Positions 8,629 through 32,094 are shown, counted from the first letter of the stretch. The stretch is 64,000 nucleotides of DNA from an uncultured Planctomycetales bacterium (GCA_964612665.1 CAZTCI010000003.1:207734-271733), one strand, 5' to 3'. Program-made: numbers and translations. The notes: generated by a model not told the origin, from the sequence alone.

Positions 8629-8635
8629 AAGCTTT

Positions 8636-9501: not shown

Positions 9502-10932
9502 ATGTTCATGAGAATAAAAACCTTCCTTCATTCCGCAAGCTTTATTAGATCAGTCTTCCTCTTATCACTTGGTTATTGGATCTATCTTGCCTTTACTTCC
9601 CATATGAATATTTCTCAAGATGCCGAGGGCTATCAACGCCTTGGCCGAATGATCTCGGAACAAGGTTGGGCTGAATATTTTAAAACCGGACCGAACCGCG
9701 AGCCACTTTATCCATTTTTAGTTTCAATCTCTATACGCCTCGGAGAAATCTTGAATACTTCTTATCAAAACGTTCAGAAAGTCTTTCAAATTTTGATTCT
9801 GCTGATGACGCAGGGGTTGGCCTTAAAAATATTAAGAGAATTCCGTGTTTCAAATGCCGCCGCGGGCTTGACTTTACTCTATTTAGGCATTTCACCCGCG
9901 GTTGTGAATGCGGGCTTTAGTCTTTTTTCGGAGGTGGCGACTTATCCTTGGCTGCTCGGCATCATTTTGGTCAGCCTTAAAGCCTGGCAGCATGTTCAAA
10001 CGGATCCTATCAAGGCCTCGCTTAAAGACGGCTTAATATTAGGCTTGCTTTTTGTGCTGATGACGTTTGTTAAAGGCATCTACCAATTTATTATTTTGCT
10101 TTATACATTGCCTTATTTATGTTTGTTGATCCGAGCTATCATGCGCAGGGAATGGAAAACTATAAAAAATATTACCGCTTTATTACTTGGCATGCTCTTA
10201 TGTCATCAGGCTCTGATTTTTCCCTACAAATATGGTAACAAAATTTATAACGGACAATTTACTTTAACTGACCGTGGTTCCTTTGCACTAATCGGGAGTG
10301 TTTTCCGTCGGCAAGAGCCGTTAACGCCCAAACGTATTCTAACCGCAATCGCCTCGATTCCCGGGGAAGGATTTTGCAACTCTTTATTCGGTGAAAAGGA
10401 CTGCTTTTTTTGGGGATTCTTGTCTTTAGACCACTATGCCATTACCAATCTTGGCAAAATTAAACAAAGCGTTCCTCCCGACCAAGTAGATAAAGCCGCG
10501 ATGGATACAGCTAAAAAAGAAATTTTTAAGAACCCTGTGCAGTTTTTTTTATTAATGGTTCAGGATATGCTGAAAATGTTTTTCTGGGAATCGACAAAGA
10601 TTGGATTTGTCTCTTATCCTTCAGCGCTTCAAAAGATTTTTGATTTTGGTCCTTTTAGAAGCGGAATCCGTTTAGGAATCGGAATGTTTTGTTTGTGGAG
10701 TTACTTTTATCTGGCGGGAATAATTTGGCGGCAAAGACACAAACTCTTTATGATCAACTCTGCGGACAACGTTTTTATTTACGGCAGTTTTTTTCTTCTC
10801 TTCCTTATCTCTTGCCACATCGGCATGTATTCTATTTTCGATACAATCCCCCGCTTTGCCCTGCCCATCGCACCGCTTTTTGTCCTTACCCTCGGGACTT
10901 CTTTTGATAATCTGACTACGAAAAAATTCTAA
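9502..10932 (+). CDS. GT-C fold membrane glycosyltransferase, ArnT/PMT_2 (GT83/GT39-like), polyprenyl-phosphate-sugar dependent
   Basis: About 11 transmembrane helices. The first periplasmic loop has a DAEGY...REPLYPFL motif typical of ArnT/PMT. Paralog of 25490-26935. Confidence 0.6.
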   Translation: MFMRIKTFLHSASFIRSVFLLSLGYWIYLAFTSHMNISQDAEGYQRLGRMISEQGWAEYFKTGPNREPLYPFLVSISIRLGEILNTSYQNVQKVFQILILLMTQGLALKILREFRVSNAAAGLTLLYLGISPAVVNAGFSLFSEVATYPWLLGIILVSLKAWQHVQTDPIKASLKDGLILGLLFVLMTFVKGIYQFIILLYTLPYLCLLIRAIMRREWKTIKNITALLLGMLLCHQALIFPYKYGNKIYNGQFTLTDRGSFALIGSVFRRQEPLTPKRILTAIASIPGEGFCNSLFGEKDCFFWGFLSLDHYAITNLGKIKQSVPPDQVDKAAMDTAKKEIFKNPVQFFLLMVQDMLKMFFWESTKIGFVSYPSALQKIFDFGPFRSGIRLGIGMFCLWSYFYLAGIIWRQRHKLFMINSADNVFIYGSFFLLFLISCHIGMYSIFDTIPRFALPIAPLFVLTLGTSFDNLTTKKF

Positions 10933-10934
10933 CG

Positions 10935-11756
10935 CTATAAATCCGCTCCATAAATAGCAAATCGGGTGTTTGGGATAGAATAAATCTTGTGGCTTTGCAC
11001 TAAATGATTTAAATATTTAAAAACATCCCGGTGAACAATGTAATCAAAATCATGCCATATAATCACACCTCGAGGCGAAAGCATTTTAAGGGCATTTTCA
11101 GTATCCGACTTAACATAAGAATAGGCGTGGCTTCCGTCGATATAAATCAAATCCATCTTTCCAAAGTACGGAGAAAAATCAAAACGCATTGAATCCCCAA
11201 AAAGCTCTTTAATTTTCTTACTGCAAGCATGCGCCCGAAAAATTCTCTTATCAATATTTTCTTTACTGAGTTGAAGGACCAAATAATCATCATAGGAATA
11301 TTCTTCCAATTGAGTTTTATTTTGTCCCAAAGAAAAATCAGCCGGAAGGTCCAATGTATAAATCGCAGCGTTATTCGGGCTGTTATAAGCAAAATGCAGC
11401 GTCGTGAAACCATTGTAGGTCCCGATCTCGAAAATATTTTGGGGTTTTAAGTAGGCTGTTATCGCCGCCAGGACTTGCGCCTCACCGGTTCTGGCGACAC
11501 TAGAGTCGGCATTGAAATAATTGGATTGGGCAAAAACTTGATTGTCCTTTAGCTTTTGATAAGTTTTGGTTTCATAAAATGAATATAATTTCCCATGCGA
11601 AAATTGATAGAACTCATTAATGATCGAAAAAAAAGAAAAGGCCAATTTCGAAAGTTTTCGCGGATGAAACAGGCCGTAAAAAAAAATCCGCACGCAGGCC
11701 ACACAAAGGTTAATCAAATTACGCAAATACCATAATGTTTTGCTTTGGGCTTTCAT
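10935..11756 (-). CDS. Class I SAM-dependent methyltransferase (TylF/MycF-like sugar O-methyltransferase family)
   Basis: IFEIGTYNGFTT SAM motif I and DLIYIDGSHAYSYV motif. Confidence 0.55.
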   Translation of the reverse strand: MKAQSKTLWYLRNLINLCVACVRIFFYGLFHPRKLSKLAFSFFSIINEFYQFSHGKLYSFYETKTYQKLKDNQVFAQSNYFNADSSVARTGEAQVLAAITAYLKPQNIFEIGTYNGFTTLHFAYNSPNNAAIYTLDLPADFSLGQNKTQLEEYSYDDYLVLQLSKENIDKRIFRAHACSKKIKELFGDSMRFDFSPYFGKMDLIYIDGSHAYSYVKSDTENALKMLSPRGVIIWHDFDYIVHRDVFKYLNHLVQSHKIYSIPNTRFAIYGADL

Positions 11757-13027
11757 TGCAATCTTTCTTTCTCTAATCGGTCAATCGTGGCCGGTAAATT
11801 AAACAGCCTTGGATAATATATTTTGGAATTATGCAGACTGCGCGTGAATCTAAAACAAAGCAAAATCATCAACCCCAAGACGCAAACCAGCTGCAGCGCT
11901 CGACAGTTCTTTAACGCACGGACAATAAGCACCGAAAAAAGTGTGGTGGCCGCTACGCAGACCGGGACCAAAAATAAAAAATAACGCGCCGGGACGGGAA
12001 AACACGGTGTTGTTTCATCTCCCGTCGGTTTGCTAACCGCTTGATGTTTAAATAAAATCAGCACGGCAACCGCCAAAGCCAACATCCCCAATGCGTATAA
12101 CAAAAAAGGATATCCTCCTTGAAGATTTGAACAGGAAAATCTTTCTACAGAAAATCGACGTGAAAAACAAAAACCCAGCAGGACAGCATAAATAAGCACG
12201 ATGATCAGACGATCTGTGGGGTAATTTGCCGAAATCAATTCTTTCGGCCCATGCCAAAACCAGTAATTGTAATGCGGCAGCTTTGTCGAATAGAGATAAG
12301 CAATCAAGCAAGGCAAAGCCGTTAAAAAAACATACCTAGACCATTGCTTCTCTTTGAGAAGCCACAACAAACACGAAACAATAAAAATCTGCGCCATACT
12401 AAAAACAATTGTAAAGGCCAGACAAAAATGCACGACGATCAAAGCGCGCCAAAGTCTTGATACATCCTCTTTGACCTGACATATCCGTATGAATAAAAGC
12501 AATTGAAGCGTCGTTAGAAAAATCCAGAGCGCGTAAGGACGGGCTTCGGCAATATAAATTTGAATCATATAAGAAGAAGCGCTGATGCCAAGAGAATAAA
12601 AAGCGCTCTTCCAAGAATAAAACCTTGCGAAAAAATAAAAAATAGCGGCGACCGCCAGACTCATAAAGAAAACCGGCTGTAAGCGAACAACAATTTGCGA
12701 AAGTGTGTCTTCATAAAATCCTGGCGTGTGGCCAACCTTTTTCCATTTTTCCATCAAAGATTTCGGCATGCGATAGCCAGCGAGGCCACAAAAGAATTTC
12801 TGCGACAAATAAAATAAAGGACAGTTATTACCTTCTTTGACCAAAGACTCTGACCGCATTAAAAGAATGTCAGTATAGGAAGATTCCATAACGCTTGTTC
12901 TTAATGTATACAGTTCATCAGTCCATAACGGTTTAAAGGCCGCTAAAAAAATTCCCATCGCGCATGACAGCAAAAAAACAACCAAACTGAGTGGAAGAAT
13001 CTTTTTCGCTGGCAGTGTTACTTCCAT
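11753..13027 (-). CDS. Polytopic membrane protein, putative GT-C glycosyltransferase (PMT_2-like)
   Basis: More than 10 predicted transmembrane helices, with a WTDELYT acidic motif in the first loop. Confidence 0.45.
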   Translation of the reverse strand: MEVTLPAKKILPLSLVVFLLSCAMGIFLAAFKPLWTDELYTLRTSVMESSYTDILLMRSESLVKEGNNCPLFYLSQKFFCGLAGYRMPKSLMEKWKKVGHTPGFYEDTLSQIVVRLQPVFFMSLAVAAIFYFFARFYSWKSAFYSLGISASSYMIQIYIAEARPYALWIFLTTLQLLLFIRICQVKEDVSRLWRALIVVHFCLAFTIVFSMAQIFIVSCLLWLLKEKQWSRYVFLTALPCLIAYLYSTKLPHYNYWFWHGPKELISANYPTDRLIIVLIYAVLLGFCFSRRFSVERFSCSNLQGGYPFLLYALGMLALAVAVLILFKHQAVSKPTGDETTPCFPVPARYFLFLVPVCVAATTLFSVLIVRALKNCRALQLVCVLGLMILLCFRFTRSLHNSKIYYPRLFNLPATIDRLEKERLQ

Positions 13028-13953
13028 TTTTTTCCTCGGAAATCATTGGACACAAAAGCGTCTCGACTGGACTGACGAGCCATCTTTAACCCCTGGGCAG
13101 CATCTAAATTGGATAAATTTAAAACACGGTAAGAGCTGATTGAATTTAAAGAAATGTCTAAGGGACGGCTGGGCAGATCATCAGCCACATATTGGGCGGG
13201 CTTGACTAACTCTTCAGAAAATCCAAATTCCCGGGCAAACAGTTTAAGAAAACTATAACGGCTTTCGCGCGAGGCGCCGGCCAAATGAAAAATTCCAGAA
13301 ACACATTCCAGGCCGATCACTTCAATCGCTTTCGCTAAATCTCCTATGTACGTTGGGGAATTAAATAAATTTTCATACGCATCAATCTTTTCCCCTCTTT
13401 TTAAGTTTAAAAAAGCTGTTCCCAAAAAGGATTGTTCGGGATTGTTGGTAGAATAAACGCCGCTCGTGCGGACAATCGCCGCCGGACAGGACATGGATAA
13501 CACCAGATTTTCCGCTTTTAATTTGGTTTGACCATAAACAGTAAGCGGATAACATTCTGAGGACGGTGTGTACCTCCCTTTTAAACCATCAAAGACATAA
13601 TCGGTAGAGATAAAAATAAAAAAGGCGCCGCGTTCGAGACAAACTTCGGCGATATTCTTTGTCCCCACGCTGTTTATTTGTTCAGCCGATTCCGGATGAT
13701 CTTCACACCAACCGACATCTTTCACCCCGGCCAAATGAATCACGCAGGATGGTTTGTATTCCGACACGACAGACAAAATCCGGTCGCGGTTTAAAATGTC
13801 AAAAGGATGAATATCTGCAGTCGAATGAAGAGGCCGGGTTTGGTGATACGTTCTTAACACCTCATACTTACAAGCCAAGGCGTTCACCAGTTGAGAACCG
13901 ATAAAACCGCTGGCGCCCGTCACTAACCACTTAAATTTTGAATTACCTGGCAT
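13018..13953 (-). CDS. NAD(P)-dependent sugar-nucleotide reductase, RmlD (dTDP-4-dehydrorhamnose reductase)-like
   Basis: WLVTGASGFIGSQL Rossmann motif and the FISTDYVFDG motif characteristic of RmlD. Confidence 0.55.
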   Translation of the reverse strand: MPGNSKFKWLVTGASGFIGSQLVNALACKYEVLRTYHQTRPLHSTADIHPFDILNRDRILSVVSEYKPSCVIHLAGVKDVGWCEDHPESAEQINSVGTKNIAEVCLERGAFFIFISTDYVFDGLKGRYTPSSECYPLTVYGQTKLKAENLVLSMSCPAAIVRTSGVYSTNNPEQSFLGTAFLNLKRGEKIDAYENLFNSPTYIGDLAKAIEVIGLECVSGIFHLAGASRESRYSFLKLFAREFGFSEELVKPAQYVADDLPSRPLDISLNSISSYRVLNLSNLDAAQGLKMARQSSRDAFVSNDFRGKKWK

Positions 13954-14662
13954 ATTTTTTTCTAAGGTTCAGAAGAATTTTTAAAAATCGTGATCCCTCT
14001 CGGAAGATCCCCAGCTTTGTCTCGCCAAAAACGCGCTCCCCGTAGGAAATCGTAACTTCTTCAATTTTAAAACCTGCTTTAAAAGCATGAAATGTAAATT
14101 CAATCATCATCGCGTTGCCTTCGCACTCCAAGAGTTTGCCGACTTTATCAAAAACTTCACTGCGAAAAATCCTTAAGCTGTGTGACATGTCGTAAATCTT
14201 AACACCGAGAATGATACGCGATAATTTTTGCCCCAATGAACTTAAATAAATGGCGAACGCGGATTTACTTTTCATGGCCACAATATGTCCAGGCAAATAG
14301 CGCGAACCGATCACCATGTCGGCCAAAGTAGTCTCCATCTTGTCGAGCATTTTCAAAATATCTTGCGGCGCGTGAGCGAGATCAGCGTCCATGATACCGA
14401 CGATAGGCGTTACGGCGGCGTTAATACCGCATTTCCAAGCGGAGGCGAGTCCTTTTTCGTTTTTTCGGACAATGAGTTGAATGATGTTCCCGCAGACAAC
14501 ATTATGCTGTCCAACGATATCTTCAATACCGTCATTGCTGTCGTCATCAACAATAATAATTTTAAGATTGGGCACTTGAGGCAGGATCGTCTGATAAATT
14601 TTGGGCAGGAGAATGTTAACGTTTTGAGCTTCCTTATAAGTGGGGATAACGATCGAAAGCAT
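13943..14662 (-). CDS. GT2 glycosyltransferase, polyprenyl-phosphate sugar synthase (Dpm1/GtrB-like catalytic domain without a transmembrane tail)
   Basis: LSIVIPTYKEAQNV, IIVDDDSNDG and DADLAH (DxD) motifs. Confidence 0.6.
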   Translation of the reverse strand: MLSIVIPTYKEAQNVNILLPKIYQTILPQVPNLKIIIVDDDSNDGIEDIVGQHNVVCGNIIQLIVRKNEKGLASAWKCGINAAVTPIVGIMDADLAHAPQDILKMLDKMETTLADMVIGSRYLPGHIVAMKSKSAFAIYLSSLGQKLSRIILGVKIYDMSHSLRIFRSEVFDKVGKLLECEGNAMMIEFTFHAFKAGFKIEEVTISYGERVFGETKLGIFREGSRFLKILLNLRKKYAR

Positions 14663-14688
14663 AAATGAACTTAAATGGCTAACGCGCT

Positions 14689-15063
14689 TTACGGACGTTT
14701 CTCAGCGTCCACGTAAAAAAAGTCAGGATCATGTTTATCCATTGGATGCGACAACACATTAATCCAACGAGCATCTTTGATAATTTGAAAGGTGTGCACT
14801 TCCAAAGGTTCAACAATAAAAATGTCGCCTTTGCGCACGGTGATTTCTTTGGATTCTTGAGATTTAAGATGCTTGACCGAAACTTTAATTTCACCTTCCA
14901 TAATAAAAAAAAGCTCGGTGGTTTTTTTATGGTAATGGCCGCCGCGCGTTGAGCCGCTGTGAGATTCGATATAATTAATTTCCCGCATCCAGTCAAACTG
15001 GCTGATTCCTAGGATTTCTCCTCGAGAATCAGCAGATTTGAAATAAGGTTTGAGGATTTTCAT
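14689..15063 (-). CDS. Cupin, WxcM/FdtA-like sugar 3,4-ketoisomerase
   Basis: 124 aa; RGGHYHKKTTELFFIMEGEIKV matches the FdtA/QdtA RGxHxH signature. Confidence 0.5.
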   Translation of the reverse strand: MKILKPYFKSADSRGEILGISQFDWMREINYIESHSGSTRGGHYHKKTTELFFIMEGEIKVSVKHLKSQESKEITVRKGDIFIVEPLEVHTFQIIKDARWINVLSHPMDKHDPDFFYVDAEKRP

Positions 15064-15132
15064 AAGCGTTTCTAAGAAAATTTTCTTACTTTTAAAAAAT
15101 GAAACTAACTATAACAAAACACCTTCAATTAA

Positions 15133-16245
15133 TCAAGGCGCCTTTTCTTTGAATAACATGAGCGCAAATGAATCCCAAGCCCACCCTAACGACAATGCCC
15201 AAAACGGCACCACCCAAGTAAATTGGCGCTGCAAAAACCAATAACCCTGGTTTAAAACGCCGATCAAAAGCAGTTCTAAAGGAAAAACGACAAGAGTCAG
15301 GAAAAAAAGTATTTGTAACCATCGTTTAGACAAAGGAAATATAAAAGGAAAAATAACCGCTGGCACAAAAATATAAAGCTTCCGATTTCCGAGGAGATTG
15401 CCAAGAACTCCCTTTACAAAACCAGCCATACTCACTAAAGGATTCGGGATATAATCAAAGGTATTCATGGTCCGGGCATTCTTCAAACTGGCATCAAGAC
15501 CGGTTGTGACCATCGGAAGATGATAAGGACCTATCATGCTAATCAACCATAAAGGCGCCGCTATAACACCGATAACAGCGAAAAAGATAACAATACTCTT
15601 CAAATTCTTTCTAAAATTGACCTCACGCCAGTGACTTAGCACCAAATAACTCAAGACACATAATATGATAACGATGCCATAGGCGTGAAACCATAAGATA
15701 ATCAGAAAAATTATTGCCATCTTAACTTTTTGAACTACAGACCACCCGCCGATTTCTTCAAACGATTTTTCACCATAATAAAAAGCCATCAGAGCCAGCG
15801 TCGGTAAAACGGCATAGACCCGGATTTCAACCGAATGGAAAACCAAATTCCAATTGGAAGCTACAATACTGTACGTGATAACATCACCCATCAGCGTCTT
15901 AAAATACTTTTGGCAAATCTGGTAAAGAAAATAAAATCCTAAAAGCGCAATGGCGATATGCGGGATTGCAATCAACCATTTGTTGAATCCAAACAATTTG
16001 AAAAAAGGATACATCAAAAGATAATCCCCGGAGAGCCAGCCGCCGTGTTCAGCGTGAGGAAGATTGATAAGCACATTAATAAAACTTCCTTGCCGCTGTA
16101 AAAAGTTAAGTTGCCAAATACCGTCGCCTCCAATGCGAGGTGGGTTTATAGCAATACGCTGCAACCGAAAAATTAACGCCAAAAAAGCGAACAGAATCGC
16201 CAGCCATCGACGGAGTTTAGGATTTTCTAGAAATTCCCAGTTCAA
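15133..16245 (-). CDS. Polytopic membrane protein of unknown function (candidate GT-C/GtrII-like transferase)
   Basis: About 10 transmembrane helices. The ORF-track start at 16272 would encode the terminator U-tract and the RBS (SFFSKGE). The start is moved to the in-frame TTG (residue 10) after the GAAAGGAGAG RBS. Confidence 0.45.
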   Translation of the reverse strand: MNWEFLENPKLRRWLAILFAFLALIFRLQRIAINPPRIGGDGIWQLNFLQRQGSFINVLINLPHAEHGGWLSGDYLLMYPFFKLFGFNKWLIAIPHIAIALLGFYFLYQICQKYFKTLMGDVITYSIVASNWNLVFHSVEIRVYAVLPTLALMAFYYGEKSFEEIGGWSVVQKVKMAIIFLIILWFHAYGIVIILCVLSYLVLSHWREVNFRKNLKSIVIFFAVIGVIAAPLWLISMIGPYHLPMVTTGLDASLKNARTMNTFDYIPNPLVSMAGFVKGVLGNLLGNRKLYIFVPAVIFPFIFPLSKRWLQILFFLTLVVFPLELLLIGVLNQGYWFLQRQFTWVVPFWALSLGWAWDSFALMLFKEKAP

Positions 16246-16260
16246 GCTCTCTCCTTTCGA

Positions 16261-16337
16261 AAAAAAACTCAAGGGTGTTAAGTGTCAAGTGTTAGGTGTT
16301 ACATAAATTGTAACACCTAACACTTGACACCTGACAC
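16261..16337 (-). terminator. Intrinsic terminator on the minus strand. The arms GTGTTAAGTGTCAAGTGTTAGGTGTTACA / TGTAACACCTAACACTTGACACCTGACAC form a 29-bp stem (two mismatches: one U-G wobble, one A-C), followed on the minus strand by TTTTTTT (16261-16267)
   Basis: Read directly. Lies between the stop of 16346-17749 and the RBS of the next gene. Confidence 0.7.
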
Positions 16338-16345
16338 ACTTGTCG

Positions 16346-17749
16346 CTAAATAAATTTAATCTTACGCATCGCAAACCCGCACATCCGAAAAAGCAGCAGC
16401 CCGTGGCGAAAGCGCTGGATTTGCGTTGTGCCGTATTGGCGTTCTTTATAACGAATAGGCAATTCGATAATTTTCAAATTGAGTTTAGTTGCGCCGAAAA
16501 TCAAATCAAAATCACCAAACGGATCAAAGTCGCCAAAATATGAACGGTTGGCGGCAATCGCTTCGTAATGATGTTTAAAAAGAACCTTGGTACCGCACAA
16601 CGTATCCTTAAACTGCTGGCCCAAAAGCCACGAAAAAAATAAACCGAAAAATTTATTCGCCACCAGATTCAAAAACCGCATGGCTTCCTTTTCCATGGGA
16701 TATACTAAACGACAACCGTTGATGAATTCACCGCGGTTACGCTGGATCACTTCATAAAATTTCGGAAGATCTTCTGGCGCGACGGTCAAATCAGCGTCGA
16801 GAATTATCAAGATTTCTCCCTGGGCCTGGCTGAACCCTAAGCGCACGGCATCGCCTTTTCCCTTTCCTTTTTGTTTTAAAAGCTTGATATCTTTCTTTGG
16901 ATACGCCTTGATAACCCGTTCGACTTCTTCATAAGTTCCATCTTTTGATCCGCCTTCCACAAAAATAAATTCTTGGTATTTGCCAAAATCAGGCGTACGG
17001 CTGACAACAGCCTCAATATTCCCTTTTTCGTTGCGGCAGGGAACAATAATCGACACGGAAAATTCACACTGATGTTCTCCAACGGGTCTTGCGATAATAA
17101 AATGATTCAAGGTCAACGCGTTAATGACCGGAAGCTTGGCGATATATCGGTTTAATAAATAACTTAGTCCCCAAATTTTCTTAGGATAAATAATAGAACG
17201 TTCGACTTTAATCGGTTCATAACCTTCCAAATGTAAAAAATTGGTAATGTCATCTGCTGTCAGCCAGTTTTGCAGGAGTTGCGGCATCTTCGTTTTTAGT
17301 TTCTCGCCAAGTTTGAGAATGTACTGCCACAGACAGCTGTAATACTCAATAATGATCCGCGTATCGCTGTGGCAAAAACGTTTCAAATCTTTTAAAAACT
17401 GTTGAACGTCGGTGAGTTCACCCACCAATCCAGATAAAATAATATAATCGAATTTCTGCTCGAAACGAAGGTCGCTGATTTCGCCTAAGAAAAACTGCAG
17501 CTGCGGATGTTTCGCGCGGGCGATTTTAATCATTTCTGAACTCACATCACAGCCCACACCCAGCGACGGCAAAAGTGCGTTAAGCAACACCCCTGTTGAA
17601 CACCCGACTTCCAGGATTTTTTTGTGCGGTGGAATAAAATAACGGTATTGTTTATAAAGGAGAGAATAATAGTAAGCATTTTGGCCGAGAAAATCCTGGC
17701 GTTGGGACGCCAGCGCATCGTAATGACGGGCGATTGTTTCCGTTGTCAT
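16346..17749 (-). CDS. Bifunctional fusion: N-terminal class I SAM methyltransferase plus C-terminal GT2 polyprenyl-phosphate glycosyltransferase
   Basis: N-terminal [17 protein letters not shown] (SAM motif I); C-terminal [18 protein letters not shown] and [13 protein letters not shown] (GT2 DxD). Confidence 0.6.
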
Positions 17750-18816: not shown

Positions 18817-19268
18817 AGCATCATTTTTGAAAAAACATTGGGTCTCTGTTTTTTTAAAGAAGATTCTTATCCGTCGGTGTAATAACACGCTTATGTTCAA
18901 AGGGTTTTATTTTCTGCACCACCATCAAAAATGCAATGTAATCATTCAAGTCGCGAGATGATTCGGGTTTATGCCGTTGTGCCTTAAGAAATTCCTGACG
19001 CCGTTCTTGGCTTAGACCATCAGCCAGCATTTCTTTCTTTTCACGATCACTGAGCATTGTTTATCCTTTTTAATAAAATATCCAATTCCCTATCTTGATC
19101 AAACAAATGAAAGTATTCTTTAATAAGATTAAAATCTAACTTATTAAAATCTTTTCTTATTAAAAATTCAATATCAGCTAAGTCTAATGCATGGCGTGTA
19201 GTATTATTCACCATTGATTGAACCTTTATTGACTTTTGTGAATCCAAAGGAAGAAACAAAAGTCAATA

Positions 19269-19697
19269 TTAGGCCTTTTCCCTTGGATGATAAGAATAAG
19301 AAACTCTCTTTGGAAAGGAAAAGGCCAATAAACCGATAATGTCTTCTGCGATAAGAACAGGGATTTCAAAATTATCGAGTACTTTGTGTTTTTTTGCTCT
19401 TGCCAGCATTTTTCGTGAATAATCTCGATGGGCGTGAAGATAATCGACACACCCTAAAGGCGCCATAGGATGCCAGTAATTTGAAAATTCTTGCGACTCA
19501 TGAGTCAGTTCGTACCCTAATTGAGCCATAATGTCTTTAACTTTACTGAGCTCTTCCGATTCGATTAGAAAATCTATATCTCTGGTTGCTCGGGTAAAAC
19601 CGGCTACATGCATAGCAAAACCACCAATAAGAGCAAACCGGATATTCTGTTTACTAAACTTCTGAAGTAATTCTTTAAAAACTAATTCAAAATTCAT
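19269..19697 (-). CDS. Minimal nucleotidyltransferase (MNT/AbiEii-like pol-beta superfamily)
   Basis: RFALIGGFAMHVAGFTRATRDIDFLI: the hG[GS]...DxD nucleotidyltransferase signature. Confidence 0.5.
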   Translation of the reverse strand: MNFELVFKELLQKFSKQNIRFALIGGFAMHVAGFTRATRDIDFLIESEELSKVKDIMAQLGYELTHESQEFSNYWHPMAPLGCVDYLHAHRDYSRKMLARAKKHKVLDNFEIPVLIAEDIIGLLAFSFPKRVSYSYHPREKA

Positions 19698-19701
19698 AAT
19701 C

Positions 19702-20649
19702 TCATCCTATTTGAGGTCTCTCTAAAACATAATCCACAATATACCGCGGACGGCCGCGGGATTCATCGAAGGTGCGCCAGAGATATTCGCCAAGCAAACC
19801 CATCATCATCATTTGAATGCCGCCGATGACAAGGATTGCCACCATCAACGACGACCAGCCTTCAACCGGCGACCCGTAAATCGACAGGATTAAAATATAA
19901 ATCGCATAAATAAATCCGACGAACGCCACGATAAAACCCAAAACGCTCATGTAACGGATCGGAATGTCGCTAAAAGCGAGCAGCGAATCTATGGTGAGTT
20001 TAATTTTCTTGCCCAAACTCCATTTCGACCGGCCGCTGTGCCTGGCTTTTTTAACGTAAGGCACCGAGGCCTGTTCAAAACCCAGCCATGCCAGCGTCAT
20101 AAAAATGGACGTATGTTTTTCTTTGATTTCTTTAAAGGCGTTGATGACCGTGCGGTCCGCCAGAAAAACGTCCGCGCCCGTCGGGTGCATTTTAACGCCG
20201 GTCAACCAATTCATTAATGAATAATAAAGGCGGGAAAAAAATTTGGTGTTGAGGGGTTCGCCTTCGCGTTTAGCGCGCACACCCCAAACGACTTTGGGTC
20301 CCTGCTTCCAGACTTGAACAAGCTGTAGAATAAGTTCCGGCGGATCTTGTAAATCAGCGGCCATGACAACAGCGCAGTTGCCCTCACAATGTTTTAATCC
20401 TGCCGCCAGCGCCGCATGGCTCCCGCAATTCCGGGCAAAACGGATAATGTGAACGCGCGGGTCTTTGTCATACAATCCCTTGAGCCGGACCGGCGTTTCG
20501 TCCGTCGAGCAGTCATCGACGAAAATAAATTCAAAGGAATATTCTCTGAGTTTAACGGCAACATCATTTAACCGCTGATGCAGAAGCTCAATATTGCCTT
20601 CTTCATTATAAGCGGGAATGATGACGGAAATGATCATTAGCTTTTCCAT
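19702..20649 (-). CDS. GT2 polyprenyl-phosphate glycosyltransferase with a C-terminal transmembrane anchor (GtrB/ArnC-like)
   Basis: ISVIIPAYNEEGNI, FIFVDDCSTDET and VMAADLQDPPE, plus two C-terminal transmembrane helices. Confidence 0.7.
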   Translation of the reverse strand: MEKLMIISVIIPAYNEEGNIELLHQRLNDVAVKLREYSFEFIFVDDCSTDETPVRLKGLYDKDPRVHIIRFARNCGSHAALAAGLKHCEGNCAVVMAADLQDPPELILQLVQVWKQGPKVVWGVRAKREGEPLNTKFFSRLYYSLMNWLTGVKMHPTGADVFLADRTVINAFKEIKEKHTSIFMTLAWLGFEQASVPYVKKARHSGRSKWSLGKKIKLTIDSLLAFSDIPIRYMSVLGFIVAFVGFIYAIYILILSIYGSPVEGWSSLMVAILVIGGIQMMMMGLLGEYLWRTFDESRGRPRYIVDYVLERPQIG

Positions 20650-20664
20650 AAGAGTTTAGTTGAA

Positions 20665-20795: not shown

Positions 20796-20803
20796 TTAAA
20801 AAA

Positions 20804-22012
20804 TTAATCATTCCTGATCAATCCAATAATCTTCTTAATCTCATCCTCCGACATTCCGACATAAAGCGGCAACAAAACGACTTGCCGACGGGCTAATTCC
20901 GAATTTGTTAGCGGTCGTTTCTGCGCCGCGTAGGGCGCTTCCTCATGAGCGTTCATAATACCGGCGCGCGTTGTTACGCCTTCATCCAGCAGATACTGCA
21001 TCATTTGATCGCGCGTTCGTGGCGCGTTTTCAAGCAAACGCACCGGAAAGCTTTGCCAATTACTGCGGCCGTAAACCGGTTCTTGAACCATGCGCAGCCA
21101 GGGCACATCCTGCAAATTTTTGATGTAATATTCTGCCAATCTCCGTCGGGTCCAAACAATTGTGTCTAAACGTTTGAGTTGTTCAATGCCGATTGCAGCC
21201 TGAATATCCGTCATACGATAGTTGTATCCGACAATTGGATATTGTTCGGCCATAACGCTTTTTGATTCATGACGGACTAAATCAGAAACATTCATGCCTT
21301 GATGGCGCAGCAATCTTAAATAATCGTCATGGAATTTTTCCTGACTTGTAATCATCCCGCCTTCGCCCGTTGTAATAATTTTCCGCGGATGAAACGAAAA
21401 GCACGCCAAAGCACCATGTGGTTTGCCGATCTTCTCAAAAGTTTTTCCGCCATCAAATGAAATCTCACTGCCGACCGCGCAGGCCGCATCCTCGACGACT
21501 GGCACTTGAAATTGACGCATCAACTTCAAAATATTGGACAGATCGCACGGAAGCCCCATTTGATGCACAACTAAAAGCGCGCTGATCTTTCTGCCTTGAT
21601 AAAATAGAATTCCGTTCTCAAACCGGCATTCGTTTTGAATGAACTCATTTAATTTTTCAAACGAAAGATTATACGTTTCTAAATCAATATCTATAAACAA
21701 AGGCTCAGCGCCGCAATAACGGATGCTGTTGGCAGTCGCGATAAAAGAATGACTGACGGTAATTACATAATCACCGGGTTTAACGCCGACGGCAAGGAGC
21801 GCCAGGTGCATCGCGCAGGTACAATTAGAAACCGCACCAGCGAAAGCCGCACCAGTGCAGACGCTAAATTTATTCTCAAACTCCTTAACCTTCGGTCCTT
21901 GTGTGACCCAGCCGGAACGGATGACTTCACTTGCGGCGTTAGTTTCTTCTGTTCCCAAAACCGGTTTAGCAAGAGGAATTACACTTTTAGAAATTGAATT
22001 TGATTCAACCAT
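20804..22012 (-). CDS. DegT/DnrJ/EryC1/StrS family sugar aminotransferase (FdtB/WbpE/ArnB-like)
   Basis: FSFHPRKIITTGEGGMITSQ PLP-lysine motif; 402 aa. Confidence 0.65.
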   Translation of the reverse strand: MVESNSISKSVIPLAKPVLGTEETNAASEVIRSGWVTQGPKVKEFENKFSVCTGAAFAGAVSNCTCAMHLALLAVGVKPGDYVITVSHSFIATANSIRYCGAEPLFIDIDLETYNLSFEKLNEFIQNECRFENGILFYQGRKISALLVVHQMGLPCDLSNILKLMRQFQVPVVEDAACAVGSEISFDGGKTFEKIGKPHGALACFSFHPRKIITTGEGGMITSQEKFHDDYLRLLRHQGMNVSDLVRHESKSVMAEQYPIVGYNYRMTDIQAAIGIEQLKRLDTIVWTRRRLAEYYIKNLQDVPWLRMVQEPVYGRSNWQSFPVRLLENAPRTRDQMMQYLLDEGVTTRAGIMNAHEEAPYAAQKRPLTNSELARRQVVLLPLYVGMSEDEIKKIIGLIRND

Positions 22013-22959
22013 GCGACAAGCCTTGTTAATCCTTCTTTTAAAGAAACGGTTGTTTTAAAACCGAGAATATTTTGGGCTTTGGAAATATCCGCCAATCGTC
22101 GTCGGACTTCGACTTTTTGGCGGTCGTGAGGGATTTCGACATACTGAGGTTTTAAAGGTGATTGCATGACTTCGAGAAGCGATAAGCATAATTGCTCGAG
22201 TGAGGTTTCTTTGCCTTCGGCCACATTGAAAACATCGTTTGTAACCGGAGTTTTTAAACCAAGAATGCTGGCGCGTGCCACATCTTCGACGTAAACAAAG
22301 TCCATGGTTTGTTTCCCGTCGCCAAAAATAACCGGCGGCTTGCCTTCTTTGATGAGATGGTACCAACGGATCAACACCTCTGTATATTTCCCAAAGGTAT
22401 CCATACGCGGGCCGTAAATATTAAAGTAACGTAACGCGACATAATTTAGACCTGACATTTGATAAAAGGAACGGCACATCAGTTCATTGGCTGCCTTGGC
22501 CGCGCCGTAAAGGGTAAAATTATTGTAAGGATGGTGCGTTTCTTTGGTGGGAAAACTATCCGCTTGACCGTAAACGGACGCGCTCGACGCTAAAACGAGT
22601 TTTTTTATTTTATGTTGAACGCAGGATTCCAAAACATTGAACGTGCCGTCGTACATGATTTCTAAAGCTTCGCGCGGTTGGGCGGCACATTGTGTAATGC
22701 GTAAGGCAGCGAGATGAAAACAATAATCCATACCGGCCGTCAGCGAATCAATCAACGCCCGGTCACGGATGTCGCCTTCAATGAGTTTAATTTTTCCGGA
22801 AGCTAAAGCACTTTTGAGATTTTCACGCGAACCACGCATAAAGTTATCGATGACGGTGATTTCTTTAACGTGTTCGGCCACTAATTGTTCGACGATATAA
22901 GAGCCGACGAATCCGGCGCCACCGGTGATTAGGATTTTCGAATTATTTAGAGTGTTCAT
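21979..22959 (-). CDS. NAD-dependent epimerase/dehydratase (UDP-sugar 4-epimerase / UDP-glucuronate decarboxylase-like)
   Basis: ILITGGAGFVGSYIV, YGAAKAANE (YxxxK) and GDGKQTMDFVYVEDVA. Confidence 0.6.
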   Translation of the reverse strand: MNTLNNSKILITGGAGFVGSYIVEQLVAEHVKEITVIDNFMRGSRENLKSALASGKIKLIEGDIRDRALIDSLTAGMDYCFHLAALRITQCAAQPREALEIMYDGTFNVLESCVQHKIKKLVLASSASVYGQADSFPTKETHHPYNNFTLYGAAKAANELMCRSFYQMSGLNYVALRYFNIYGPRMDTFGKYTEVLIRWYHLIKEGKPPVIFGDGKQTMDFVYVEDVARASILGLKTPVTNDVFNVAEGKETSLEQLCLSLLEVMQSPLKPQYVEIPHDRQKVEVRRRLADISKAQNILGFKTTVSLKEGLTRLVAWLNQIQFLKV

Positions 22960-22992
22960 ATCAATTTTTTCATCGAGAGGGGCTTTTGGTAT

Positions 22993-23123
22993 GGGCTGTC
23001 AGCGAACTCCGATCCAGCGTCCGCCTACCTTCTTTCCAGAAAAGGCGTAGACTGGATCGCGTGCCCGCCCCGGCTTCGCCGGATACGGCGGGCCGGGGAG
23101 CGGATAGCCTGCTGCCAAAGCCC
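22993..23123. repeat. GC-rich structured intergenic element of about 130 nt (over 60% GC in a genome with low-40s GC). It contains the hairpins CCGATCCAGCGTCCGCC/GGCGTAGACTGGATCG and CCGGCTTCGCCGG
   Basis: Read directly. Shares short motifs with the element at 26966-27066. Confidence 0.4.
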
Positions 23124-23134
23124 ATTCGTCGAAG

Positions 23135-23755
23135 TTATATCATTTTATTTCTTCGCAGTATAATCGCTAATGCCTCGTGGCCAATCAATGTATAAGTAAA
23201 ACGATAGCTTTGAATTTGATATTCAGAAAAACTCCGGACCATTTCTAAAAGCGCTTCTTCGGTCCTCACCCATTGCCCGCGGTCTAGCTTTCTTAACAAC
23301 CACGCCAGCGGCCGTAAATACGGCCGTCTGGGCCAGACACTATCAATAATCACAACCCGACCGCGCCCGTCGGTTAAACGCATTATTTCTTGAATCGTCT
23401 GGCGGGCGTCCGCATCAGCAAGATGATGCAGCAATCCAAACGACCGACATTCATCAAAAGAATTTCGCCGAAACGGCATTGCCGCCGCCGACCCAACAAC
23501 ACCTTTTCTTTGACTATCCTTTGAATAACTTTTAATGTAACCCAAATTAATGTCTAACCCGACGAGTTTCTGTTCCGGCCCGGCAGAAGTATTGAGCTGC
23601 GGACCGCATCCAACATCTAAGATCAGACCTTTTGAATCTTTAAAAATTTTGTTAAAATGTTTCCTCAAAAAAAAATTGGCGCCAGGGGCCAATACAACTT
23701 GAGAAGCTCGATAGACGAGCGGATTATTTAAAATTGGATAAAGCCAAGCGGCCAT
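23135..23755 (-). CDS. Class I SAM-dependent methyltransferase
   Basis: LDVGCGPQLN motif I. Confidence 0.55.
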   Translation of the reverse strand: MAAWLYPILNNPLVYRASQVVLAPGANFFLRKHFNKIFKDSKGLILDVGCGPQLNTSAGPEQKLVGLDINLGYIKSYSKDSQRKGVVGSAAAMPFRRNSFDECRSFGLLHHLADADARQTIQEIMRLTDGRGRVVIIDSVWPRRPYLRPLAWLLRKLDRGQWVRTEEALLEMVRSFSEYQIQSYRFTYTLIGHEALAIILRRNKMI

Positions 23756-23760
23756 AATGA

Positions 23761-24243
23761 CTAACGTTTCTTAAGAAACCGCGCCGGATTTCCAACCCAA
23801 ACTTCATTCGGCGGAATATCCTTGGTGACAACGCTTCCCGCGCCGATTAAAGCACCAGCCCCGATTTTAATGCCGCCCAAAATTGTCGCGTTACTTCCAA
23901 TTGAAACGCGATTCCCGATTTTCGTTTCAACAAACCGGCCTTTCCAATCCGCTTCGGCTTCCATTTCACCTTTATCATTGACCGAACGCGGATTGTTATC
24001 ATTGACAAACATAACCCCGTGGCCGATAAAACAATCATTGCCGATCGTGACACCTTCACAAATAAATGTATGCGAAGAAATTTTACAATTCTTCCCGACG
24101 GAAGCGTTCTTTTGGATCTCAACAAAGCTTCCAATCTTTGTGTTATCCTCCACACGGCAGCCATATAAATTTATAAATTTAGAAAGCTTGACGCTTTGTC
24201 CCAGCTTAACGTCATCGGCGACACATAAAAAATTATTATTCAT
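23761..24243 (-). CDS. Left-handed beta-helix (hexapeptide repeat) acetyltransferase, sugar N-acetyltransferase-like (WbpD/FdtC/PglD type)
   Basis: Repeated [LIV]G.... hexapeptides (IGNDCFIGHGVMF, IGSNATILGGIKIGAGALIGAGSVV). Confidence 0.6.
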   Translation of the reverse strand: MNNNFLCVADDVKLGQSVKLSKFINLYGCRVEDNTKIGSFVEIQKNASVGKNCKISSHTFICEGVTIGNDCFIGHGVMFVNDNNPRSVNDKGEMEAEADWKGRFVETKIGNRVSIGSNATILGGIKIGAGALIGAGSVVTKDIPPNEVWVGNPARFLKKR

Positions 24244-25244
24244 AGCTTAATAACTTTGCCTTTCTTCTTTAATGATTCAGCCGCGGCTGAAAGCAAATGC
24301 ATGACGCGCAGACCAGAATCTCCGTCGTTAATCGGTTGTTGGTTGGTCTTAAGACACTTTACAAAATGTTCCAATTCCAATTTAAGCGCCTCGGTTAAAT
24401 CCACATGAGGCGACCACATATCACCAGAACGGTAATCGACCATCAAACGATAACGGCCTTCCTTATCGTTAAGGGTGACCCCGCGGTCGTAGACTTTAAT
24501 TTTTTCATCGGTCTGCAAATCGTCCCACACCAGCATCTTTTTTTCGGCGCCAATCAAAACTGTCCTAATCTTAACCGGCGAAAGCCAATTCACGCTAATG
24601 TGCGCCATAAATTTCTCTTGGAAATAAACCGTAATGTACGCCATATTTTCCTGCCCGCGGCCCATATGGTCAATGCCTTGGGCGCTTACGGCGACGGGTT
24701 TATAAGGAATAACATAATCAATAATCGAAAAATCATGCGGCACCAGATCCCAAATGACATTAGCGTCATGACGAAAAAGCCCGAGGCTGCTGCGCAAAGA
24801 GTCATAATAATATAACTTCCCTAAATCTTTTTGCTCGATCAATTCTTTAATTTTACGCACCGCACCGGTAAAAAGAAAAACATGGTCCACCATAATGGTC
24901 AATTTTTTCTTTTTGGCCAGGGCTGTTAACTCCTCGGCTTCTTTTAAATTGGAAGTGAAAGGTTTTTCAATAAAGACATGCTTGCCGTTCATTAACACGC
25001 TTTTGGCAAGTTTATAGTGTGTAGAAACTGGAGTAATGATAGCAACGATATCGATCGCGGGAGATTTAATGATCTCATCCGGATCGGTTGTAAGATGGGA
25101 AATGTTGGATAGATTTTGGAATTTTTTAAGCGCCTGGGGATTTTGATCACACAAACTATGAACTTTAATCCCCTCAATGGATAAAAGATTCCGAACAACA
25201 TTAGGTCCCCAATATCCGTAGCCAATGACACCGAAATTAAGCAT
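24240..25244 (-). CDS. Gfo/Idh/MocA-family NAD-dependent oxidoreductase, WbpB-like UDP-sugar 3-dehydrogenase
   Basis: NFGVIGYGYWGPNVVRNL Rossmann motif and EKP motif (FIEKPF). Confidence 0.55.
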   Translation of the reverse strand: MLNFGVIGYGYWGPNVVRNLLSIEGIKVHSLCDQNPQALKKFQNLSNISHLTTDPDEIIKSPAIDIVAIITPVSTHYKLAKSVLMNGKHVFIEKPFTSNLKEAEELTALAKKKKLTIMVDHVFLFTGAVRKIKELIEQKDLGKLYYYDSLRSSLGLFRHDANVIWDLVPHDFSIIDYVIPYKPVAVSAQGIDHMGRGQENMAYITVYFQEKFMAHISVNWLSPVKIRTVLIGAEKKMLVWDDLQTDEKIKVYDRGVTLNDKEGRYRLMVDYRSGDMWSPHVDLTEALKLELEHFVKCLKTNQQPINDGDSGLRVMHLLSAAAESLKKKGKVIKL

Positions 25245-25438
25245 AGTAACTCCTTCGCGAATCTTGACTTTTGTACCATGATAAGGCGCGTTTGGAAAGA
25301 AAAAAGTAAATTGATGATGGCTTACAAAATACTTGTGAAAATTTCTGTAAACGGTGAGGAATGTAATAGAATACCGTCAATAATTTAAAACTTTTACCAG
25401 CACTTGTGCTAGTAAAGATTAAGGCCCATGAGCGGATC

Positions 25439-25464
25439 ACCGCGACAGGACCCGCTGCTTCGGC
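25439..25464 (+). repeat. 26-nt GC-rich element CCGCGACAGGACCCGCTGCTTCGGCG in the 5' UTR of GT-C paralog 2. It is the near-perfect inverse of 26965-26990
   Basis: The reverse complement of 26965-26990 is GCCGTGACAGGACCCGCTGCCTTCGGC. Confidence 0.55.
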
Positions 25465-25489
25465 GATTATTCAGATAAATTGTAGAAGC

Positions 25490-26935
25490 ATGAAAAATTC
25501 TATAACGCAAAACAAAGTCTCTCTCCTTTCTTATCTTCAAGAGCCGGTCATCGCTCTTGCCTTTCTCTTACCGCTTATCTATTGGATTTATCTGGCCTTC
25601 ACCACACAGATGAATATCCGTTTTGATGCGCAAGGGTTTGAAAAACTCGCAGGGTATATTTATCATCAAGGCTGGCCGGCTTTTTTTGAACAAAATCCCG
25701 ACCAAAGTCCTCTCTATCCTTTTCTTATTTCCATTTCCATGCGGATAGCTGACTTTTTTGCGCTGCCTTACCAAAGAATTCAAACCATCTTTCAAATTTT
25801 CCTGCTATTACTTTCCCAATTCTTGCTATTAAAAATCTTAACGCGGATTAACATTAAGAAATCTCTAATAGCTTTCGTCTTGCTTTATTTTGGATTTTCA
25901 CCGGCTATTGTCAACTCAGCCTTTAGTCTTTTCTGCGAAATCCTAACTTACCCTTTTGTCCTCGGGATTATTTTGTGTTCGGTTGAAATCTGGAATTTAA
26001 TTCTAAGCAAAGAACGTTTTGGCCGGATAGTGAGTTACAGCATTTTACTGGCGGCAATTTTTTTTCTTATCACCTGCACGCGCGCGATTTATGAATACAT
26101 TCTTGTCGTCTATATTTTCTTTTTTGCTTTGATATCCATTAAATTTATTAGAGAAACGGAGCGCTTCCTGCGAGCGATAGCTTTTTTAAGTATTGTGTTC
26201 ATATGCTTTCAAACGCTTTTAACGCCTTATAAACTGATGAATTTGAAATATAACGGCCACAAAGTCACCATCATTGTGGGCGCTTCATCTGTTTATGCCG
26301 ACGCTGTTGGAAGAACGCGGCCGATTACGGGTCAACAACTCCTGATCGCATTAAGTTTTATCCCAGGAGACGGCGTGTGTTGGAAATTTTTTGGGAAAGA
26401 AAAATGCGATTTTTGGTACAACGACATGTACCAAATTGGGCTTAAAAAAGTTGAAGCGCTCAGGAAGGCTGGAATTCCTAATGAACAACATGACAAAATC
26501 CTTTACCGCGAAGCCAAGGAACATATTTTCCAAAAACCGTTCCAGTACGCGCTTTTAAATGCGATTGAAGGGTTCAAAATGTTCTTTTGGGAATCAACCC
26601 GGATTGGGTTTGTGGCTTATCCGGTGTGGTTGGAAAAAATTTTTAGGAATGTGCTTTTTAAAGATGTTTTGCGTCTAGCCGTCGCTATTGTAACGATCTT
26701 TTGCTTTCTTGATAATTTGATTTATGTTTTTCGCAGGCGGGATTTTTATGAAGTGCGATCTAACACGATATATCTTTTCACCATCTTGGTCGTCGTTACG
26801 GCAAACATCGTCTTACATTCCTTTTTCATAACCGTAACCCGTTATGCGCTTCCTTTTGCGCCTTTGTATTTGATCTTGATTGCCTGCACGCTGCAAAGAA
26901 AAACCGCATCCAGCAATCATCCGTCTCATTATTAG
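25490..26935 (+). CDS. GT-C fold membrane glycosyltransferase (ArnT/PMT_2-like), paralog of 9502-10932
   Basis: IYWIYLAFT, DAQGF...QSPLYPFL and FWESTRIGFV are conserved with the paralog (..FWESTKIGFV..). The start is set at the internal Met (MKNSITQ); the ORF-track N-terminus would translate the GC-rich repeat. Confidence 0.6.
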   Translation: MKNSITQNKVSLLSYLQEPVIALAFLLPLIYWIYLAFTTQMNIRFDAQGFEKLAGYIYHQGWPAFFEQNPDQSPLYPFLISISMRIADFFALPYQRIQTIFQIFLLLLSQFLLLKILTRINIKKSLIAFVLLYFGFSPAIVNSAFSLFCEILTYPFVLGIILCSVEIWNLILSKERFGRIVSYSILLAAIFFLITCTRAIYEYILVVYIFFFALISIKFIRETERFLRAIAFLSIVFICFQTLLTPYKLMNLKYNGHKVTIIVGASSVYADAVGRTRPITGQQLLIALSFIPGDGVCWKFFGKEKCDFWYNDMYQIGLKKVEALRKAGIPNEQHDKILYREAKEHIFQKPFQYALLNAIEGFKMFFWESTRIGFVAYPVWLEKIFRNVLFKDVLRLAVAIVTIFCFLDNLIYVFRRRDFYEVRSNTIYLFTILVVVTANIVLHSFFITVTRYALPFAPLYLILIACTLQRKTASSNHPSHY

Positions 26936-32093: not shown

Positions 32094-32094
32094 A

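Follow-up and report, generated by a model that had tools for sequence, protein, structure and literature searches.

In Rhizobium leguminosarum, a single polyprenyl-phosphate sugar synthase, RgtE, feeds several glycosyltransferases of the GT-C type (RgtA/B/C/D), which act at different positions of one envelope glycolipid; the donor in this system carries galacturonic acid (GalA), and the Rgt genes are scattered. Methylation is joined to glycosyl transfer in WsaE of Geobacillus, a methyltransferase-glycosyltransferase fusion in which the glycosyltransferase domains elongate a lipid-diphosphate-linked glycan and methylation caps the chain. Periplasmic glycosylation of the three-component kind combines, by definition, a lipid-phosphate-sugar synthase, a flippase and a GT-C enzyme (PMC11127046), and pentofuranose systems related to the Gtr systems founded the family GT136 in 2024 (PMC11127046). 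Here we describe a 17-kb glycan island at positions 9502-26935 of a 64,000-nt stretch of DNA (the window), which is deposited as part of an uncultured Planctomycetales bacterium (GCA_964612665.1 CAZTCI010000003.1:207734-271733). We conclude, with a probability of roughly 0.6, that this island is a cell-envelope glycosylation locus of Omnitrophota that works through monosaccharide donors linked to polyprenyl phosphate. An earlier note on the same DNA had proposed that sugars are loaded onto a lipid phosphate and transferred by GT-C enzymes in the periplasm, and this overall logic fits the results reported below.

Open reading frames (ORFs) were mapped along the window, and their products were scanned against Pfam and NCBIfam. 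The comparison then took in the surroundings of family C genes in genomes (34 loci) and of family B genes in metagenomes (79 loci), labelled L001 onward, and all their ORFs were searched with all window proteins. Homologues of the proteins of the region come nearly all from metagenome-assembled genomes (MAGs) of Candidatus Omnitrophota, and its G+C content, 0.40-0.46, is no different from that of the flanks. The genes of the island and its immediate surroundings, including a fusion of a methyltransferase (MT) to a GT2 glycosyltransferase (MT-GT2) and a short-chain dehydrogenase/reductase (SDR) of the core, are as follows.

6850-8688, minus strand: half-size ABC exporter, HepA/MsbA/PglK-like (NCBIfam matches below the cut-offs)
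8636-9340, minus strand: winged-helix (helix-turn-helix, HTH) protein heading the pse operon (Pfam HTH_24)
9502-10932, plus strand: GT-C family A, copy 1; polytopic; no Pfam, NCBIfam or PDB-sequence match
10935-11756, minus strand: Methyltransf_24 (TylF-like) methyltransferase (Pfam PF13578, E 1e-15); overlaps the stop of the family B gene
11753-13027, minus strand: GT-C family B; polytopic; no Pfam match; W-x-D-E motif after the first transmembrane helix (TM1)
13018-13953, minus strand: RmlD-like NDP-4-keto-6-deoxyhexose reductase, module 1 (Pfam RmlD_sub_bind, 1.6e-50)
13943-14662, minus strand: soluble Dpm1-type GT2, putative polyprenyl-phosphate sugar synthase, module 1
14689-15063, minus strand: small cupin resembling the CapF/WbjC C-terminal region, module 1 (Polysacc_synt_C 7e-13, Cupin_2)
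15133-16272, minus strand: GT-C family C (PMT_2-like); polytopic; weak PMT_2 match
16346-17749, minus strand: MT-GT2 fusion, core; S-adenosylmethionine (SAM) methyltransferase at residues 38-180 and GT2 at residues 232-454 of one ORF
17746-18900, minus strand: CDP-tyvelose 2-epimerase-like SDR, core (PDB 1orr, E 5.8e-40, full length)
18854-19697, minus strand: degraded nucleotidyltransferase (AbiEii/DUF6036-like) and small ORFs; broken ORFs
19702-20649, minus strand: GtrB/ArnC-type GT2 with two C-terminal transmembrane (TM) helices, module 2
20804-22012, minus strand: DegT aminotransferase, module 2 (Pfam, NCBIfam)
21979-22959, minus strand: SDR, module 2 (Pfam, NCBIfam)
23135-23755, minus strand: Methyltransf_11, module 2 (Pfam)
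23761-24243, minus strand: LbH (hexapeptide) acyltransferase, module 2 (Pfam, NCBIfam)
24240-25244, minus strand: Gfo/Idh/MocA oxidoreductase, module 2 (Pfam, NCBIfam)
25490-26935, plus strand: GT-C family A, copy 2; divergent from module 2; paralogue of 9502
27099-28199, minus strand: acyltransferase-3 (AT3) membrane O-acyltransferase, core (Pfam Acyl_transf_3, 3e-31); adjoins metF

Mapping and domain scans thus reproduced the gene list of the earlier note in its main items, namely four polytopic GT-C-like proteins, three GT2 genes, the fusion and the WTDELYT motif, which occupies residues 35-41 of the 11753 protein. Two further items stood in part: of the two DegT aminotransferases placed within the island only one lies there, the second being the PseC-like gene at 4646-5803 in the upstream pse cluster, and the acyltransferase-3 exists although it lies beyond the end given for the region. 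Because four GT-C and three Dpm1/GtrB-class GT2 genes occur within 17 kb, are translationally coupled and are syntenic in other genomes, their clustering is not a chance pattern.

The four membrane proteins fall into three families, A, B and C, of which family A is present in two paralogous copies that share 37% identity over 460 residues (E 8e-99). Families A and B have no match in Pfam or NCBIfam, nor by profile among PDB sequences; their homologues above threshold, 169 and 35 respectively, are nearly all unnamed or 'hypothetical', and weak PMT or PMT_2 matches occur in only one of 41 family A and one of 33 family B homologues. The family C protein scores 22.5 bits against Pfam PMT_2 (PF13231), below the gathering cut-off of 26.1 bits, so that none of the three families reaches the threshold of this GT39-GT83-like domain; about 40 of 93 family C homologues do carry PF13231, and a profile of the family found nothing among PDB sequences. 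Structures were predicted for two of the proteins, from families A and B, with pLDDT values of 93.5 and 92.4. The family B model matches ALG12 (score 24.1), Pmt4 (23.1), Pmt2 (20.9) and ArnT (19.4), and its first 20 structural matches all have the GT-C fold, while ArnT is the best structural match of the family A protein of module 2. The modelled proteins are polytopic, as expected of GT-C enzymes (7-13 TM helices), and superpose on solved members of this superfamily.

Each of the three families keeps an acidic residue just past TM1, where the first extracytoplasmic loop begins. In family A it is the invariant D40, which begins a helix at residues 40-54 following TM1 (residues 12-32); in family B, D37 and E38, nearly invariant like W35, stand at the start of a helix at residues 36-47, following TM1 at residues 7-29; in family C the invariant residue is D50. 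Profile-profile alignment with hhalign links family C to family B with a probability of 89.6% (E 1.9e-6) and aligns their WxDE and E-RPYA motifs, and it gave no link of family A to the others (A versus C 21.7%, A versus B 8%). Structure prediction thus shows a GT-C fold in the models of families A and B, with a conserved putative catalytic acid, and the link to family B, the PMT_2 similarity and D50 together support a GT-C assignment for family C.

The earlier note had named O-antigen polymerases, ligases or transporters as the identities that would undo its reading. The GT-C structural matches, the acid after TM1 and the profile evidence for family C all point away from these, and we rejected a Wzy, WaaL or transporter identity on the structural matches. 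A related proposal, that the membrane proteins are not lipid-phosphate-donor transferases at all, being instead polymerases, ligases, transporters or dead GT-C scaffolds like PIG-U/GAB1, we consider very improbable. The four membrane enzymes probably pass lipid-linked sugars to an acceptor outside the cytoplasm, and from the linkage and fusion of GT-C genes to Dpm1/GtrB-type GT2s we infer that these sugars are carried on lipid phosphate.

All three GT2 proteins are closest among solved structures to dolichol-phosphate mannose synthase (DPMS), GtrB or ArnC and carry the class motifs DxD and DADLxxxP(E/Q)D (for example, VDDDS with DADLAHAPQD and VDDCS with AADLQDPPE), as the earlier note had supposed in calling them polyprenyl-phosphate synthases. 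The 19702 protein is a full-length GtrB homologue (PDB 5ekp, E 7e-68, residues 7-306; ArnC, 1e-39) with TM helices at residues 236-254 and 268-286, and its NCBIfam scores of 230 bits for PgfS and 167 bits for ArnC are both under the equivalog cut-offs. Among solved structures 13943 is closest to Pyrococcus DPMS (5mlz, E 1e-15) and second closest to ArnC, and its top NCBIfam matches (AglJ, ArnC, a Dol-P-hexose transferase and PpgS) are all below cut-off; the GT2 domain of 16346 likewise matches DPMS best (4.7e-16) and ArnC second, and its NCBIfam equivalog scores also fall short of the cut-offs. The 13943 and 16346 proteins have no TM helix; as with Dpm1 types that lack TM segments, their membrane attachment would call for interface helices or a partner. 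These comparisons support assignment of the three proteins to the Dpm1/GtrB/ArnC class, although not particular specificities, and their probable role is to attach sugars to a lipid carrier in the membrane.

The fusion protein retains the methyltransferase and GT2 parts that had been described for it, and its SAM motif is kept (ILEVGCSTG in the window protein; VLExGCGTG, GVGIDxS and FDYI in the family consensus). The suggestion that such a fusion is unusual does not hold, since a HMMER search of 1.84 billion cluster representatives returned 849 proteins at E<=1e-30. Among the best 150 of these relatives, about two-thirds align over nearly the full length at 35-52% identity, and the order of an N-terminal methyltransferase and a C-terminal GT2 is conserved across hundreds of unnamed proteins. 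Some metagenomic relatives carry a third domain: P0251, P0262 and P0286 are fusions of PMT_2 (GT-C), methyltransferase and GT2, P0342 joins an SDR epimerase to methyltransferase and GT2, and P0252 does the same with LPG_synthase_TM, an MprF flippase-type domain. Profiles of families A, B and C found no match in the long MT-GT2 fusion proteins, and the GT-C domains fused to MT-GT2 are ordinary PMT_2 domains and not members of these families. The triple fusions provide independent support for a path that would lead from an NDP-sugar epimerase to MT-GT2, then to flipping and to a GT-C enzyme, and P0252 suggests the UPF0104/MprF-TM domain as a flippase for the class of lipid-linked sugar made by MT-GT2. 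A literature search on MT-GT2 fusions and on glycosylation in Omnitrophota yielded nothing specific, and no characterised member of the MT-GT2 pathway was found.

Comparison of loci divides the island into a core recurring in related Omnitrophota and two add-on modules that the window genome carries besides. The recurrent layout, exemplified by L047, L074, L077, L078, L089, L039 and L060, begins with metF, continues with AT3, the orthologue of the 17746 SDR, MT-GT2, one to three copies of GT-C family B, and families A and/or C, and ends with the winged-helix gene, PseB and the remaining pse genes; in related loci the core holds one to four GT-C genes. In the window the core comprises AT3 (27099), the SDR (17746), MT-GT2 (16346), GT-C B (11753), the Methyltransf_24 gene (10935) and GT-C A (9502). 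Module 1, consisting of GT-C C, the cupin, the 13943 GT2 and the RmlD-like gene, is inserted between MT-GT2 and GT-C B, and module 2, consisting of the second GT-C A, the Gfo, LbH, Methyltransf_11, SDR and DegT genes, the 19702 GtrB homologue and the nucleotidyltransferase remnant, between AT3 and the SDR. One related locus, L060, has the order metF, AT3, SDR, MT-GT2, B, Methyltransf_24, GT2 and A, which is that of the window minus the two insertions.

Within this layout MT-GT2 is strongly conserved. Its orthologues in 19 loci are 57-76% identical (median 71%), and in the same loci metF shows 67% and the 17746 SDR 66% identity, whereas GT-C families B, A and C show 36%, 38% and 36%. In at least 12 loci the family B gene follows immediately after MT-GT2, which is repeatedly flanked by the SDR, AT3, metF and the HTH-PseB pair. 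Orthologues of the SDR (63-69% identical) stand directly upstream of MT-GT2 in L047, L048, L060 and L074; those of AT3, which is NolL-like (85 bits), stand upstream of the SDR and MT-GT2 in L060, L071, L072 and L089; and an orthologue of the Methyltransf_24 protein with 65% identity follows GT-C B in L060. Orthologues of the winged-helix protein, 50-54% identical, adjoin PseB and GT-C genes in L015, L016, L018, L027, L030, L039, L043, L046, L047, L068, L074 and L077, and this gene marks the conserved boundary of the locus.

The nucleotidyltransferase remnant at 18854-19697, a feature missing from the earlier note, consists of a 142-residue fragment of the AbiEii/DUF6036/NTP_transf_5 type followed by ORFs of 70 and 67 residues in other frames, and it lies at the exact junction between module 2 and the conserved core. 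It looks like a decayed gene of the toxin-antitoxin type and may be the scar of the module 2 insertion.

This arrangement bears on the model put forward in the earlier note, that the island holds three or four independent modules of the GtrA/B/C or ArnC/ArnT type, each with one GT2 and one GT-C and each acting at its own position on some surface molecule, of which type IV pilin is a possible instance. The window does contain three GT2 and four GT-C genes with tailoring genes interleaved; family C adjoins a GT2 of the Dpm1/GtrB type in other genomes as well (L001, L005, L008, L010, L013, L014, L016, L017, L019, L035 and L036), and module 2, with its GtrB homologue and divergent second copy of family A, looks self-contained. 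However, related loci usually pair one detected GT2 with several GT-C genes, as in the many loci of at least 12 kb that have one detected donor GT2 and two to four GT-Cs (for example, L047, L054, L078 and L089), and the island contains no GtrA, SMR or MATE flippase. In place of several equivalent modules, these loci share a core of SDR, MT-GT2, one to four GT-Cs and AT3, to which two additions have been made here, and we consider the model of independent modules unlikely.

We favour instead a pathway organized around the core, in which the three GT2s would each move a tailored sugar from its nucleotide carrier to polyprenyl phosphate at the cytoplasmic face of the membrane. The core would supply one donor, a polyprenyl-phosphate-linked hexose epimerised at C2, to which the fused methyltransferase may add a methyl group either ahead of lipid loading or afterwards, and several GT-Cs would use this donor. 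Once flipped, the sugars would be passed by the four GT-Cs of three families to an acceptor facing the periplasm, and AT3 would probably O-acylate the product. Epimerisation at C2 is suggested by the closeness of the 17746 SDR, whose real start is probably near 18822, to CDP-tyvelose 2-epimerase. Module 1 would contribute a 6-deoxyhexose donor through the RmlD-like reductase (TIGR01214, 178.6 bits against a cut-off of 224), the cupin and the Dpm1-like GT2. Described in the earlier note as FdtA-like, the cupin gives only 27 bits to that family; its best match is the CapF/WbjC C-terminal cupin (Polysacc_synt_C, 49 bits), it also matches the WbcJ C-terminal region, and it is a probable sugar epimerase or isomerase. 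Module 2 would provide family A copy 2 with an N-acylated amino-sugar donor, made with the aminotransferase, the LbH acyltransferase, the methyltransferase and the GtrB homologue in an Arn-like logic.

For module 2 a 2,3-diacetamido pathway of the WbpB/E/D type was considered and not adopted. The nearest solved relatives of the DegT protein (20804) are C4 aminotransferases, namely perosamine synthetase and ArnB, so that a C3 pathway of this type is not established, and the Gfo protein, previously described as a WbpB-like dehydrogenase, has no WbpB-like match among solved structures. In L015 a Gfo/Idh/MocA domain and an LbH acyltransferase are fused in one 524-residue protein (4903-6477), which supports the action of the window genes at 24240-25244 and 23761-24243 on the same sugar.

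What the analysis shows directly are folds and families, paralogy, synteny, levels of conservation and domain fusions, from which the identity of the donors, the stage of methylation, the flippase and the acceptor are inferred. Several findings weigh against the proposed pathway. In only seven of the 29 loci that extend 1.5 kb or more to each side does MT-GT2 adjoin family B, and in 11 it lies within 5 kb, which indicates that the core is typical of a subgroup of closer relatives and not a general feature. The gene that follows MT-GT2 in the window belongs to family C instead of B, and donor-transferase pairing is therefore unreadable from gene order alone. The fast divergence of the GT-Cs could merely reflect that they are membrane proteins, and the sugar identities rest on sub-threshold family matches. 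The third and defining component of Gtr systems, a GtrA/SMR/MATE flippase, is absent from the island: all ORFs of 90 residues or more from 9.5 to 28.2 kb have an assignment, and the space left between genes would not accommodate a further one. Finally, the window contains no WaaL, PglB, PglL, priming phosphoglycosyltransferase or lipid A gene that would anchor the choice of acceptor.

Against this background the locus can be set beside the systems introduced above. Like the Gtr systems of Shigella and Salmonella, it encodes a GtrB-class GT2 together with extracytoplasmic GT-C enzymes. It differs from them in the absence of the dedicated flippase, in having four GT-Cs from three families, of which two match no curated family, and in its extensive sugar-tailoring genes. 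The pattern of one synthase and many GT-Cs seen in many related loci appears closest in logic to RgtE with RgtA-D and to the mycobacterial GT-Cs that depend on polyprenyl-phosphate mannose (PPM) or decaprenyl-phosphate arabinose (DPA). The Rgt comparison is one of logic, with no sequence relationship shown, and whereas the Rgt system uses GalA and scattered genes, the window donor is predicted to be a 2-epimerised, possibly methylated hexose and its genes are clustered. In comparison with mycobacterial PimE, Emb and Aft (PPM/DPA) and eukaryotic ALG3/9/12 and PMT, which use dolichyl-phosphate mannose, the window GT-C proteins are more compact, at 380-480 residues, and lack carbohydrate-binding or MIR domains; moreover, the host appears to be diderm, because the window encodes a secretin, and nothing at the locus shows polymer building.

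Module 2 resembles the Arn pathway, which adds 4-amino-4-deoxy-L-arabinose (L-Ara4N) to lipid A, in its ArnB-like aminotransferase, N-acyltransferase, ArnC/GtrB-like GT2 and ArnT-matching GT-C. The NCBIfam equivalog scores, however, are far below the cut-offs (ArnB 239 versus 631, ArnC 168 versus 529, ArnA 47 versus 777), and NCBIfam scans found no ArnA decarboxylase/formyltransferase, ArnD deformylase or ArnE/F at the locus; the locus therefore does not match the Arn pathway at the equivalog level. With WsaE, the MT-GT2 protein shares the union of a SAM methyltransferase and a GT2 on one polypeptide in a surface-glycan pathway, but its GT2 belongs with the Dpm1-class enzymes, whose reaction puts a monosaccharide on lipid phosphate.

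The only candidate near the island for a flippase of lipid-linked sugars or glycans is the ABC exporter at 6850-8688, which scores 385 bits for HepA, 340 for MsbA and 236 for PglK, all below cut-off, and has homologues in L012, L019, L030 and L074. As acceptor we would place, with low confidence, an envelope glycolipid or lipid-linked glycan (lipopolysaccharide or a pse-containing glycan) ahead of proteins. What stays linked to the locus across relatives is metF and the pse operon with its leading winged-helix gene, and not pili. Pilin, which the earlier note had offered as a target and which independent modules might decorate, gains some plausibility from the type IV pilus operon 4 kb from the island. 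Yet type IV pilus genes are absent from related loci apart from weak pilB matches in L033 and L085, the only two of about 110 loci with any pil match; metF, a phosphatase and two unknown ORFs stand between island and operon; and the major pilin (39462) has no Ser/Thr-rich tail. A pilin acceptor is accordingly rated unlikely.

A different protein acceptor is imaginable. Streptococcal GT2s of the GtrB/PgfS type act with GT-Cs to glycosylate Ser/Thr-rich regions (PMC12041528), and PMT- or PgfS/PgfM-like O-glycosylation of secreted or membrane proteins in the window host would have a possible substrate in a giant Ser/Thr-rich protein encoded at 44872-56850, which keeps this option open. We regard protein O-glycosylation as quite unlikely and retain an envelope glycolipid or lipid-linked glycan as the preferred acceptor.

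The surroundings of the island contain further surface-related genes. Upstream, a cluster at 1297-6771 on the minus strand encodes PseB (501 bits, above the TIGR03589 cut-off), a PseC-like aminotransferase, a CMP-sugar cytidylyltransferase, HisH/HisF-like genes of the WbuY/WbuZ type and a WbuX N-acetyl-sugar amidotransferase (335 bits, above cut-off), and from these matches an acetamidino-modified nonulosonic acid is predicted; the pse cluster and its winged-helix first gene recur beside the GT-C locus in related Omnitrophota. Downstream, a complete type IV pilus/secretin operon occupies 30837-43054. Between the phosphotyrosine phosphatase and this operon lie two minus-strand ORFs without family match, 29643-30254 and 30482-30775, and a 203-residue product from this pair begins with three TM helices and ends in a coiled, charged region. 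Just past the pilus operon, 44872-56850 (plus strand) is a single ORF of 3992 residues with 23% Ser+Thr and stretches of up to 57%, which fits the report that giant proteins of Omnitrophota are flanked by type II secretion or type IV pilus genes (bioRxiv 10.64898/2026.06.07.730766). A second, small glycolipid-type set at 60932-63372 (minus strand) comprises an MGDG-synthase/GT28-like glycosyltransferase, a HAD phosphatase and another GT2.

The labels of the source genomes also deserve comment. Many loci of the comparison set (L010, L013, L015, L017, L019 and others) come from MAGs labelled 'uncultured Planctomycetales/Planctomycetia bacterium', and L034 from a 2.7-Mb chromosome labelled Elusimicrobia; on loci of the Omnitrophota type, such labels are probably unreliable as taxonomy.

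The chemistry of lipid-phosphate-sugar donors and GT-C enzymes is already known, and what is new here are two sequence-orphan GT-C families and a recurrent core centred on MT-GT2. GT-C enzymes are hard to find by sequence, and families A and B are candidate new glycosyltransferase families, much as GT136 was. The conservation of MT-GT2 at a housekeeping level (about 71% identity, like metF), together with its natural fusions, marks out a pathway that is testable and widespread. A more far-reaching proposal, which we hold only tentatively and regard as rather doubtful, is that families A and B are two new GT-C families at the level of CAZy, that the SDR and MT-GT2 make a methylated hexose on polyprenyl phosphate, that the fast-evolving GT-Cs assemble or decorate a major envelope glycoconjugate wholly in the periplasm in a subgroup of Omnitrophota, and that the MT-GT2 family represents a widespread route to methylated lipid-linked sugars in many phyla. 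Omnitrophota are uncultured and of 'nanobacterium' character, and members are thought to depend on host cells. If this proposal is true, a diderm nanobacterium thought to be parasitic or predatory would build its surface glycans in a manner resembling that of mycobacteria or the endoplasmic reticulum. The locus points to a conserved envelope glycoconjugate of Omnitrophota, which could matter for cell-cell contact.

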